Shown here: positions 59,580 through 62,342 of the stretch, in pieces | Layout: each line of letters begins with the position of its first letter | Position numbering within the stretch: position 1 is the first letter of the stretch | DNA from: Escherichia coli | Lineage (GTDB): Bacteria > Pseudomonadota > Gammaproteobacteria > Enterobacterales > Enterobacteriaceae | Strand: one strand, 5' to 3' | Assembly (NCBI RefSeq): GCF_036507355.1 | Contig: NZ_AP027877.1 | DNA: 64,000 bases | The notes under the pieces: model-generated | Databases searched by the model: none | Told to the model about the DNA's origin: nothing | What the model saw: the letters and a program-made list of their open reading frames with translations, nothing else | Position numbers and translations under genes: made by a program

Positions 59580-61067
59580 TCACTGACAAATGTTTTTGTC
59601 AAAATCAACTACAATAATATCATCATATGAGTATAAGTTATATTCATATGCTCTTTTAATCTTTGCGGTTGAGCAAAAGGTTTTTTCATTTAACACACTT
59701 GCAATGTTTGTATTCCCAGGGTGTTTAAAGTAAACTCCAACTCTATTCATATAAGGGAATGGCCAATCCCAATTATAGAAATACTCTGGGAAAAATCTAG
59801 ATATTAACGGGTAATTATTTCGTGCGTTTACAAAAACATCATTGTCTTTCTTTTTACCATTAAAAATAAGTATCTGATTTGTTTTTCCGCTTAACTCGAA
59901 AGCATCATTTTTAATCTGATGAAACAGAACTGTGGTTATGTTTTTTTCTTCTGTCATTGCATTTGTGTATGAACATAAAAAACCAAAAACATAAATCAGA
60001 GGAATTACAAGTATATATGTTATTGAATTTTTTGTTTCTCGCGAGAAAAGATAAACAATCATGAATAAGAACAACATCGTAGCAGAAAAACCGATCATCA
60101 CTCTTGGGGCGTCGATGTGATGCTGAAGTGGTAATAGAGTAGCAAAAGACAATATCAAAGCTGTTACTGGCGATGTTATTGTAATTAAAAAATTAATAAT
60201 ACCAGTAATACTTTTATTAGGTATTAATTTCTTTAGCGCGATAAATGTCGTCATTGCAATGAAAAATAAAAATATTACTATAAACGCAACTCGTCCTGAT
60301 TCCCCAAAAATACCACTAGATATTGAATGAAGATAAAATTTTAAGTTTTCATATATAACTGAAAAAATGCCTTCAGTTTTAATTGATGGGTGATCCGGGT
60401 CCCCAACAACAGTTAAAAATAAAGGAATAACCACCAAAAAATATAATGCAACACCTATAACTAATGATACCGTCTTTTCTATGAGGTAAGTTAATAGATG
60501 TCTGTTACTATCTGAGTTAAAGTACATGTAAACATATTTACACAGAATAATAACCAGCATGAAATTTAATGATGCTTGGTATATAGACAATATAAATAAT
60601 GTTAACAGGGCGGCAAAAGAAATATTTAAAATTGTCTTTTTGAAATTAAATATTACAACTGAGAATGACAATGCAATACTCATGAACATCGGTAAAACAT
60701 CAAAGCGATACATTGCATTTTCAATTAAAAATGGGCTTGATAAAATACCAAGAGGAACCAACAGTCCAATAAATTTATTATCTGTCGATATAAACATCCT
60801 GCTAAAAAAATACAGGCAAACAGATATCAAAAATACTGATAATATTGCAGGAAATGGGAATAAGTCCGTTATGTGCATGTTGAAATTCAATGCAATCATC
60901 AACATTTCAGCCAAAGGTCTACCATCCCTAGCCCATCCAGTATACCCCCATATAGCTCTTCCCTGATCATCTACATAATGAATATTTGCCATGATGATGG
61001 GGGTGAAATATATAAAAACAGATATCAAGAACCAATGGAAAGGTGTTTTGTTTTTATTTGCAATCAT
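59580..61067 (-). CDS. gtr: Serotype-specific O-antigen glucosyltransferase (Gtr type-specific, polytopic membrane protein)
   Basis: 495-aa hydrophobic multi-pass protein immediately downstream of gtrB with a 14-bp overlap; third gene of a gtrA-gtrB-gtrX cassette. Type cannot be assigned without comparison. Confidence 0.75.
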
Positions 61068-61983
61068 TTTTCTGATCCTTTAAAACATATCTTGGGCGCT
61101 GCTTAACTTCAATATAAATACGTCCTATGTACTCTCCAAGTACACCAATACCAATTAGTTGTACGCCGCCAAGAAACAATATTGATACAAGAATTGAAGG
61201 GTATCCAGGTACATTATTACCAAAAATCAATTTATCAATTATCATCCATGAACCGTATGTAAATGATATACATGCAATAAATAACCCAATATAGGTCCAC
61301 ATGCGAAGCGGGAAAGTAGAAAAGCTAGTGATCCCTTCCAGCGCCAAGTTCCATAGCTTCCATCCATTGAACTTTGTGCTTCCTGCAACGCGTTCTGCTC
61401 GCGCATATTCTACGACATCGGTTCGACCACCAACCCAGCTCAGCACACCCTTCATAAACAGGTTTCGTTCTGGCATGAGCTTAATGTTTTCTACTACTTC
61501 GCGAGACATGAGCCGGAAGTCGCCAACATTCTCTTCTATCTGAGGGTTGCTGATTTTGTTATGAAGTTTATAGAACCACTCAGCAGATTTACGCTTCAGC
61601 CTGCTGTCAGTGGAGCGGTCAGAGCGTTTAGCCAGAACCATATCTGCACCGGCCTGCCATTTCTCTATCAAGTGAGGAATAACTTCGATAGGGTCTTGCA
61701 GATCAACGTCAATCGGGATAATTGCCTCCCCGGTAGCATGGTCCAGACCTGCGAACAGGGCGGGTTCTTTGCCGAAGTTACGTGTGAACGACAGCGAAAC
61801 CACAAGCGGGTCGGCAACAGCAAGCTCGTTGATAATTGATTCTGTAGCGTCTTTGCTGCCATCGTTTATGAAGACTATCTCGACTTCATGCTGCTGAAGC
61901 CCTTCAAATTCGCGCACGGTTTTATAAAAAATAGGTATCGTGGCCTCTTCGTTAAAGACCGGAACGACTAAAGAAATTTTCAT
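61054..61983 (-). CDS. gtrB: Bactoprenol glucosyltransferase GtrB (GT2 family)
   Basis: 309 aa: [13 protein letters not shown]...INDGSKD...DVDLQDP (GT2 DxD region) with two C-terminal transmembrane helices. Confidence 0.9.
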
Positions 61984-62342
61984 TTCGCATCCCTAAAGAC
62001 AATGAACTTTGAATAGATGAAACCGCACACCAGGCTGATGGCGGAGAAGGTGACAAGAGTTATCATCGGGGGAAGTGCGCATCTATCAGCAGCCCATCCA
62101 ACAGTAGCACTGAGTGTTCCCATGAACCCGACATATAACATGTAGCGCATCGTTGTAGTTGATGCTTTGAATGTGAATTTTGCATTCGCGAAGAAGCTAA
62201 AACTCACAGCCACAACGAAACCTGCGAAGTTTGCCAGAGCCTGATTGGTATGCGCGGCATAGATACATACACCAAAAACCACCCAGTGTATAAGTGTGTT
62301 CAGCACACCAATCGAGGTGTACCTTGCAAATATATTTAACAT
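61980..62342 (-). CDS. gtrA: GtrA flippase-like small membrane protein
   Basis: 120 aa: [59 protein letters not shown]..., matching GtrA of Shigella serotype-converting phages as I remember it. Confidence 0.9.

Follow-up and report, generated by a model that had tools for sequence, protein, structure and literature searches.

An intact three-gene gtr module in the remnant of a P22-like prophage of Escherichia coli, with a type enzyme that probably adds the O17 side-branch glucose

Which O-antigen modification is specified by a gtr cassette that has stayed intact in a largely ruined prophage? This question is raised by a 64,000-nucleotide stretch of Escherichia coli DNA (contig NZ_AP027877.1; hereafter "the window"), in which three overlapping open reading frames on the minus strand occupy positions 59580-62342: gtrA (61980-62342), encoding a small membrane protein of 120 amino acids (aa) that is the proposed flippase of undecaprenyl-phosphate glucose (Und-P-Glc); gtrB (61054-61983; 309 aa), encoding a GT2 bactoprenol glucosyltransferase that acts from uridine diphosphate (UDP)-glucose to undecaprenyl phosphate; and a third gene (59580-61067; 495 aa) of the GtrC family of type-specific glucosyltransferases. 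A sequence-only reading of this DNA had proposed exactly these three genes, and the frames were found where it had placed them. We find that they form a complete three-component Gtr module at the right attachment-site (attR) end of a degraded P22-like prophage, and we judge it fairly probable that the type enzyme is the O17 side-branch glucosyltransferase.

The genes themselves were observed to be undamaged. Adjacent frames overlap by 4 bp (gtrA/gtrB) and 14 bp (gtrB/third gene), as in the gene models of E. coli genomes annotated with the Prokaryotic Genome Annotation Pipeline, and a check of the reading frames found zero internal stops in gtrA, gtrB, or the 495-aa gene. The operon, 2,763 bp long, was colinear and free of indels across all five variants compared (the window and four others), and it therefore holds no overlooked frameshift or stop; the cassette is as intact as had been claimed. 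The layout was that of a three-component Gtr system in every respect that we examined: GtrA came first, a GT2-type GtrB second, and a divergent polytopic type gene directly downstream, with the cassette at a prophage end beside an attachment (att) site and a truncated integrase gene at the other end. Along the operon, the GC content dropped from ~47% in gtrA and gtrB to ~30% in the third gene, a low value of the kind usually seen in foreign, swappable type genes.

The first two genes turned out to be the conserved pair that the sequence-only reading had taken them for. By BLASTP, GtrA was 96% identical to K-12 YfdG, 85-86% identical to the GtrA proteins of the Shigella phages SfI, SfIV, and SfV, and 78% identical to P22 GtrA; it matched the profile PHROG 2224 ("GtrA-like", E = 2e-69), and PF04138 is recorded for an identical gtrA at another locus (L002). 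GtrB shared 85-88% of its residues with the GtrB proteins of SfI, SfII, SfIV, SfV, and P22 and with K-12 YfdH, matched PHROG 841/34335, and was clearly similar to the solved homologue sll0501 (5EKP; E = 1e-89) and to ArnC (E = 7e-46). No NCBIfam model matched GtrC or GtrA.

The third gene was likewise confirmed as a type-specific glucosyltransferase, this time by its family membership. The 495-aa protein, whose exact sequence is already in RefSeq (WP_338388274.1), matched Pfam PF14264 (Glucos_trans_II; E = 5e-27, residues 26-333) and, over its full length, PHROG 4829 ("GtrC-like O-antigen conversion", E = 2e-73), and a full-database HMMER search retrieved 1,217 representative homologues, the nearest of which beyond its own cluster was only 40% identical. 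When 101 homologues were aligned, D33, D34, P71, and Q164 proved invariant (D33 and D34 in 101 of 101), and R37, D68, D123, Y163, and R322 were nearly so. Sequence and profile searches of the Protein Data Bank with the 495-aa protein gave no match. The AlphaFold model was very confident (predicted local distance difference test, 96; predicted template modeling score, 0.94), and the fold that it predicts is the GT-C architecture of an N-terminal multi-transmembrane core with a further domain, here a membrane core of ~11-12 transmembrane helices (residues 10-393) followed by a C-terminal alpha/beta domain (399-495). In the model, D33-D34 directly follow the first transmembrane helix (residues 10-27) and lie in the first periplasmic, or extracytoplasmic, loop. 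GT-C enzymes have their catalytic acid located just past the first transmembrane helix, and by analogy the D33-D34 pair is likely the catalytic site of the 495-aa enzyme, a placement that supports the standard Gtr mechanism. In that mechanism, as established for the Gtr systems of Shigella and Salmonella (reviewed in PMC7685785), GtrB would work at the cytoplasmic face, loading undecaprenyl phosphate with glucose taken from UDP-glucose; GtrA would flip the resulting Und-P-Glc to the periplasmic face; and there the 495-aa GT-C enzyme would use Und-P-Glc as its donor to attach one glucose at a specific hydroxyl group of the O-unit. For the present cassette we infer the donor, the acceptor, the linkage, the expression, and the activity in the window's host.

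Could the third gene nevertheless be one of the known serotype-converting types, that is, GtrI, GtrIc, GtrII, GtrIV, GtrV, GtrX, P22 GtrC, or YfdI, under a new name? The operon architecture is common to both, and GtrA and GtrB are highly similar to those of the known systems, but the type protein itself is not. By sequence, we compared it with GtrI, GtrII, GtrIV, GtrV, YfdI, and P22 GtrC. BLASTP against GtrI (506 aa), GtrII (486 aa), GtrIV (437 aa), GtrV (417 aa), and YfdI (443 aa) returned chance-level alignments only (best E values of 1.0-3.6, thus all at E ≥ 1), in keeping with the sequence-only reading, which had recognized no known Gtr type. The closest characterised type protein was P22 GtrC, with no more than 25.7% identity over 443 aa (BLASTP, E = 2e-31), and at ~26% identity a different specificity is to be expected. 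A tblastn search of 50,697 phage records, SfI, SfII, SfIV, and SfV included, gave no Shigella-phage match at E ≤ 1e-5, and the top identity was 25%. GtrIc was set apart by primers, C-terminal repeat, and locus: the three published primers for the gtrIC cluster found no site in the window even with 3 mismatches; the 495-aa protein ends in ...DFDKNICQ, and the gtrIC repeat (four GAAATG units) is missing from its gene; and gtrIC resides at tRNA-Pro/yejM-yejO, as opposed to the ibs/sib site of the window cassette. With locus, primers, and C-terminus all in disagreement, we rejected an identity with gtrIC. On these comparisons the renaming of a known type appears refuted for every type except GtrX, and taken as a whole we find it scarcely credible.

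While the type gene thus appears to differ from all those characterised types of Shigella, K-12, and P22 with which it was compared, it is already widespread in databases, and the suggestion that it represents an uncommon type was not borne out. Beyond its RefSeq annotation, the protein falls into a 90%-identity cluster of 373 members, and the gene was present at ≥99.5% nucleotide identity in 34 of 5,426 complete E. coli genomes; the identical protein in the same arrangement also occurs in several independent assemblies and in metagenome contigs. What the window holds is, in this sense, an ordinary lysogenic-conversion module. Together with its flanks, the module measures 3.2 kb (59451-62631). 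Intact prophages carry it in both E. coli and Salmonella, and, counted by prophage and site, we encountered it in no fewer than five settings: in Mu-like-tail prophages of E. coli at att-lambda, in a Mu-like-tail prophage at argW in strain K12a, in the P22-like prophages of PSS-11 and GF66.2, in a P22-like prophage of Salmonella, and at the ibs/sib site of the window.

The hosts of the gene were strikingly uniform. The wzy gene of the O77 group of O-antigen clusters is present in 93 of the 5,426 complete genomes, and, among the matches listed, at least 30 of the 34 cassette carriers belong to these. A further carrier, PSS-11, has an O176 cluster instead of an O77-group cluster. The O77-group backbone is ->6)-alpha-Man-(1->2)-alpha-Man-(1->2)-beta-Man-(1->3)-alpha-GlcNAc-(1-> (PMC7685785), and the O176 unit is ->4)-alpha-Man-(1->2)-alpha-Man-(1->2)-beta-Man-(1->3)-alpha-GalNAc-(1-> (PMC8244359), where Man is mannose and GlcNAc and GalNAc are N-acetylglucosamine and N-acetylgalactosamine; gene content is the same in both clusters, and their transferases are homologous. 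Because both units contain a core of three mannoses and an N-acetylhexosamine (Man3-HexNAc), the enzyme can be said to travel with Man3-HexNAc hosts, and this distribution suggests that its acceptor would lie within the alpha-Man-(1->2)-alpha-Man-(1->2)-beta-Man-(1->3)-HexNAc core.

Which glucose, then, would the enzyme add to this core? Within the O77 group, the O77 antigen has no branch; O17 and O44 each have a single glucose, which is attached at a different position in the two; and O73 and O106 have two glucoses (PMC10304059). The O77-group cluster was found to encode just two glycosyltransferases, for the backbone. Strain K12a is the O17:H18 reference strain (PMC13248637), and we observed that its O-antigen cluster has the wzy and wzx genes of the O17/O44/O73/O77/O106 family, that its copy of the cassette is intact (GtrC = WP_000561375.1, with no pseudogene flag), and that a megablast search with gtrAB, which recovers loci of 80-90% identity in 471 other genomes, detects a single gtrAB locus in K12a, as it does in all 34 carriers.

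The counterpart to K12a is strain 042, of serogroup O44. As far as the summary of Wang et al. 2007 in PMC10304059 goes, the only side-branch genes to have been located are those of O44, in a prophage of strain 042 between ybhB and ybhC. We found this prophage to be the one that most E. coli carriers of the 495-aa gene harbor, at the same ybhB/ybhC site. Compared with the carriers' prophage, GtrA of 042 is identical and GtrB departs only at 2 residues and in its C-terminal tail; the third gene, in contrast, encodes an unrelated protein of 491 aa, and the DNA homology stops exactly at the borders of this gene, i.e., the type gene has been swapped precisely. The 495-aa gene is missing from 042 and from ~60 other genomes that are typed only to the O77 group. 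Taken together, the intact copy in K12a, its lone gtrAB locus, the type-gene swap in 042, and the single glucose of O17 make the 495-aa gene the obvious O17 candidate, and we conclude that the enzyme most probably makes the single glucose branch that distinguishes O17 from O77. The modification would then most likely be an O-antigen structure that is already known rather than a new one. Accordingly, the earlier suggestion of an uncommon O-antigen glucosylation stands insofar as the type is distinct from those compared, and falls insofar as the modification is most likely the known O17 branch. As an aside, the O44 type gene (NC_017626.1, 914835-916310; L024, 9836-11311) is annotated as encoding a "hypothetical protein", and its 491-aa product resembles the C-terminal third of GtrI weakly (22.5% over 191 aa, E = 1.5e-6) and the 495-aa protein not at all.

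An assignment to O17 has to be weighed against a different modification, in which the enzyme would make a branch of O73 or O106, or act on a target other than the O-antigen, while the O17 glucose of K12a would come from another, undetected transferase. O73 and O106 do carry two glucoses each, and their side-branch transferases have not been identified (PMC10304059), K12a is the sole carrier that is serologically defined, and the carriage in an O176 host implies that the enzyme is not strictly bound to the O77-group cluster. However, K12a offers a single detectable gtrAB locus for the single glucose of O17, and the two glycosyltransferases of the O77-group cluster serve the backbone only. Moreover, each of the 34 carriers showed a single gtr locus, whereas two gtrAB loci turned up in several O77-group genomes without the 495-aa gene (H312, H315-H317, H321, H326, H327, and H329), as would be expected for O73 and O106; we regard these two-locus genomes as candidates for the two-glucose serogroups. 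On balance, we hold a modification other than the O17 branch to be unlikely.

Several points nonetheless weigh against the O17 assignment and its extension to other hosts. The serological subgroup is known for K12a alone, the other carriers being typed as "O77g" only, and a second gtr locus of less than ~80% nucleotide identity in K12a would evade the megablast search. Outside the O-typing count of at least 30 among the 34 carriers stand four records that are either untyped (MS14387, GN06156, and GF66.2) or duplicates of typed genomes. In the literature searched, we found no biochemical or serological data on the 495-aa protein, and likewise no paper that assigns its gene to the O17 side branch. 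A promoter scan upstream of gtrA gave nothing above the shuffled expectation and hence no convincing promoter, and the cassette may not be active in the window's own host. As for O176, the reference structure is linear (PMC8244359), and the O176 wzy gene of PSS-11 (NZ_AP027694.1, 92485-93815; L028, 12486-13816) is annotated as frameshifted, with the change of frame at about codon 250, which, if real, would permit at most one O-unit per lipopolysaccharide molecule. A glucosylation of O176 by the 495-aa enzyme is thus a conjecture. Bearing these points in mind, we lean, if only slightly, toward a broader picture in which the 495-aa gene is the O17 determinant acting on the Man3-HexNAc core and would, jointly with the 042-type gene, split the "O77g" group, and in which it may also create an undescribed glucosylated O176 variant and constitute a cross-genus superinfection-exclusion module for mannan-type O-antigens, given its presence in P22-like phages, O176 hosts, and Salmonella.

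Has the cassette been kept by selection? The surrounding prophage is indeed heavily decayed, as the sequence-only reading had noted: it is a 10-kb remnant with a truncated integrase gene, insertion sequences (ISs), and tailspike fragments, and the survival of an intact operon within it hints at selection without amounting to evidence of it. The window differs from the common E. coli copy by 8 synonymous and 3 non-synonymous changes, of which 4 synonymous and 2 non-synonymous changes fall on the window's own branch when polarised with outgroups. The latter two, I129M and S281L, are private to the window lineage and hit positions that vary freely in the family. Three of the synonymous changes are adjacent third-position changes in gtrB codons 221-223 (61317-61325; TTC TCA ACA to TTT TCT ACT), also private to the window, and their adjacency points to probably one micro-conversion or multinucleotide event. 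With so few changes on the window branch, purifying selection and a recent arrival are not separable, so that the proposed selection to keep the cassette, while still plausible, was not demonstrated.

Accordingly, we considered that in the window's host the cassette might be a silent or functionless relic that owes its survival to chance, recent arrival, or hitch-hiking, with an O-antigen that is not its substrate or is not made. The prophage is down to 10 kb and has taken at least four IS insertions. The cassette makes up only about one-third of the remnant, so that a chance escape from four or five IS strikes is not unlikely, and the six changes on the window branch, the 2 private non-synonymous ones along with the 4 synonymous ones that include a cluster of 3, are not distinguishable from neutrality. 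The host lineage is also unlike all typed carriers: over a 25-kb core stretch (27200-52190), the window reached ≤98.6% identity to any of the 5,426 complete RefSeq E. coli genomes, with none at ≥99%, which marks the source as a poorly represented lineage. A Shigella or enteroinvasive E. coli origin, which the IS1 and IS600 load might suggest, was set aside, since the exact proteins are labelled E. coli in databases. Conversely, the 2.76 kb of the operon contain no stop, frameshift, or IS, the catalytic and invariant residues are all kept with the two private substitutions at variable positions, the proximal 130 bp upstream are unchanged, and the identical protein recurs in the same arrangement in the independent assemblies and metagenome contigs mentioned above. 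We regard a relic as possible but rather doubtful, and we retain the reading of a functional O17-type module as the preferred one. On a contig of the same lineage, we also noted an AlkA allele that is very common (15,060 index blocks).

The remnant and its site can be delimited closely. The IS-riddled insert comprises 10,037 bp (52649-62685), the final 3.2 kb of which, at the attR end, are the cassette, and it interrupts the ibs/sib repeats that separate mdtA from yegL, flanked by mdtABCD-baeSR (41068-52197) and yegL (63315-63974). Homology to other E. coli chromosomes stops at 52652 and restarts at 62686. The att core is a 12-bp direct repeat, CCTTAAATAAGG, whose left copy (52637-52648) sits inside an ibs/sib repeat and whose right copy (62686-62697) directly precedes an ibs toxin gene; exact copies were found at these two places only. 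Prophage-free genomes show 3-4 unbroken ibs repeats between mdtA and yegL. In the window, these type I toxin-antitoxin repeats are split by the insert, with one ibs copy toward mdtA and two toward yegL (52170-52652 and 62686-63147). To our knowledge, an ibs/sib repeat array has not been described as a phage attachment site.

Inside the insert, the attL end carries an N-terminally truncated phage integrase gene (52722-53465, minus strand; PHROG 7244 and PHROG 1, matching the C-terminal part of the profiles only), and beside it lies a 514-bp fragment of the IS3 family (53607-54120) that is 100% identical, in inverted orientation, to 6383-6896. This pair of fragments, 47 kb apart, is a possible substrate for inversion. 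The insert further contains an Ea22-like gene and two small phage genes, and two IS1 copies in direct tandem, 9 bp apart (54757-55524 and 55534-56301, minus strand), recognized by their InsA/InsB reading frames and terminal repeats; the two share 100% identity with one another as well as with the further IS1 copies of the window (4227-4994 and 17568-18335). An IS3-family element (57675-58828, plus strand) with OrfA/OrfB transposase reading frames, presumably IS600-like, severs the tailspike gene; a draft contig of the same lineage ends at this element. Two successive C-terminal tailspike remnants follow (58831-59223 and 59271-59531, plus strand), recognized by protein similarity: one aligns at 80% aa identity with tailspike residues 349-479 of a Salmonella P22-like prophage (L038), and the other at 57% aa identity with residues 500-588 of the PSS-11 tailspike. 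Their different ancestry suggests that the receptor-binding gene has been replaced repeatedly where the tailspike gene adjoins gtrC. Over 3.5 kb (58847-62382), the window matches that same Salmonella enterica prophage, with its order int-gtrABC-tailspike, at 92.5% DNA identity, and the ancestor was therefore a P22-like podovirus.

The flanks of the operon travel with it. Upstream of gtrA, a co-travelling segment (62343-62631, minus strand) extends to the point where homology to the E. coli prophage copy ends, at 62631; within it, the ~130 bp nearest to gtrA are conserved in 042, K-12 CPS-53, SfV, and PSS-11. About 100 bp upstream of gtrA lies an inverted repeat, GCTTTGCACTGGACTGCAAGGT (62442-62463), that is conserved in the 042, K-12 CPS-53, SfV, and P22 cassettes, and for which a terminator for int and an operator are candidate roles. 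The SfII record has a putative terminator annotated at a similar distance upstream of gtrA. On the other side, the region downstream of gtrC (59451-59579, minus strand) also belongs to the mobile module by its homology to the prophage copies, being 98.7-99% identical to those of the Mu-like-tail prophages from 59451 onward and to those of the P22-like prophages of PSS-11 and GF66.2 from 59402 onward.

This upstream region also bears on whether expression might be phase-variable through a Dam/OxyR switch, as in the P22 and Salmonella gtr operons. Such regulation would fit a GtrC that is nearest to the P22-type family, an ancestral prophage that was P22-like, and a GATC site at -58 that the two cassettes have in common. 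P22, however, has four GATC sites, at -135, -122, -71, and -58, the extra three within an inserted segment that is missing from the window cassette, whereas the window has a single GATC (62400, at -58) in 358 bp, as do the E. coli copies and 042. On this GATC content, one versus four, we rejected P22-type phase variation and consider a Dam/OxyR switch here very improbable.

If the O17 gene is assigned correctly, its practical consequence would lie in typing. Outbreak and vaccine-epidemiology papers lump O17, O44, O73, O77, and O106 together as "O77g" or the "O77 group" (PMC13188871, PMC9907479, PMC11368426), and the five serogroups are still treated as inseparable by sequence (PMC13188871): whole-genome-sequence serotyping cannot split them because one O-antigen cluster is common to all. 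An O17 gene-to-side-branch assignment, if true, would supply a simple in silico sub-typing marker for a group that includes sequence type 69 (ST69) extraintestinal pathogenic E. coli and an emerging stx2d lineage of Shiga toxin-producing E. coli, and it would give the GtrC family, which is large and for the most part uncharacterised, a member of defined acceptor specificity.

How does the module compare with known systems? At the level of the fold, the 495-aa protein is less than 13% identical to the solved GT-C enzymes ALG12, AftB, Pmt, STT3/PglB, and ArnT, and both the acceptor and the C-terminal domain differ. The cassettes of the Shigella phages SfI, SfII, SfIV, SfV, and SfX share with it the gene order, the combination of a conserved pair with a swappable type gene, and the location at a prophage end by att and int, with GtrA 85-86% and GtrB 86-88% identical to those of the window. 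Yet their type proteins GtrI, GtrII, GtrIV, and GtrV have no BLASTP similarity to the 495-aa protein, the S. flexneri O-unit is rhamnose-based whereas that of the carriers of the 495-aa gene is mannose-based, and integration at thrW contrasts with the ibs/sib, att-lambda, argW, and ecpR-region sites of the 495-aa module. The P22 gtrABC operon, which specifies the O:1 factor, is like the window cassette in that its type protein belongs to the same Pfam and PHROG family and in the P22-like backbone with a tailspike gene beside gtrC, and unlike it in the low (~26%) identity of GtrC and in the Dam/OxyR segment with its four GATC sites, which the window cassette does not have. The yfdG-yfdH-yfdI genes of K-12 CPS-53 come close in GtrA (96%), GtrB (85%), and the conserved upstream region, and they occupy the same argW/intS site as the cassette in K12a, but the 495-aa protein has no significant similarity to YfdI (443 aa). 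A further parallel is the gtrA-gtrB-"wbbG" set of E. coli 042 (O44), which has prophage, site, and O77-group cluster in common with the carriers and differs from them in the type gene: the 491-aa gene of 042 is responsible for the O44 branch, while it is the O17 reference strain that has the 495-aa gene.

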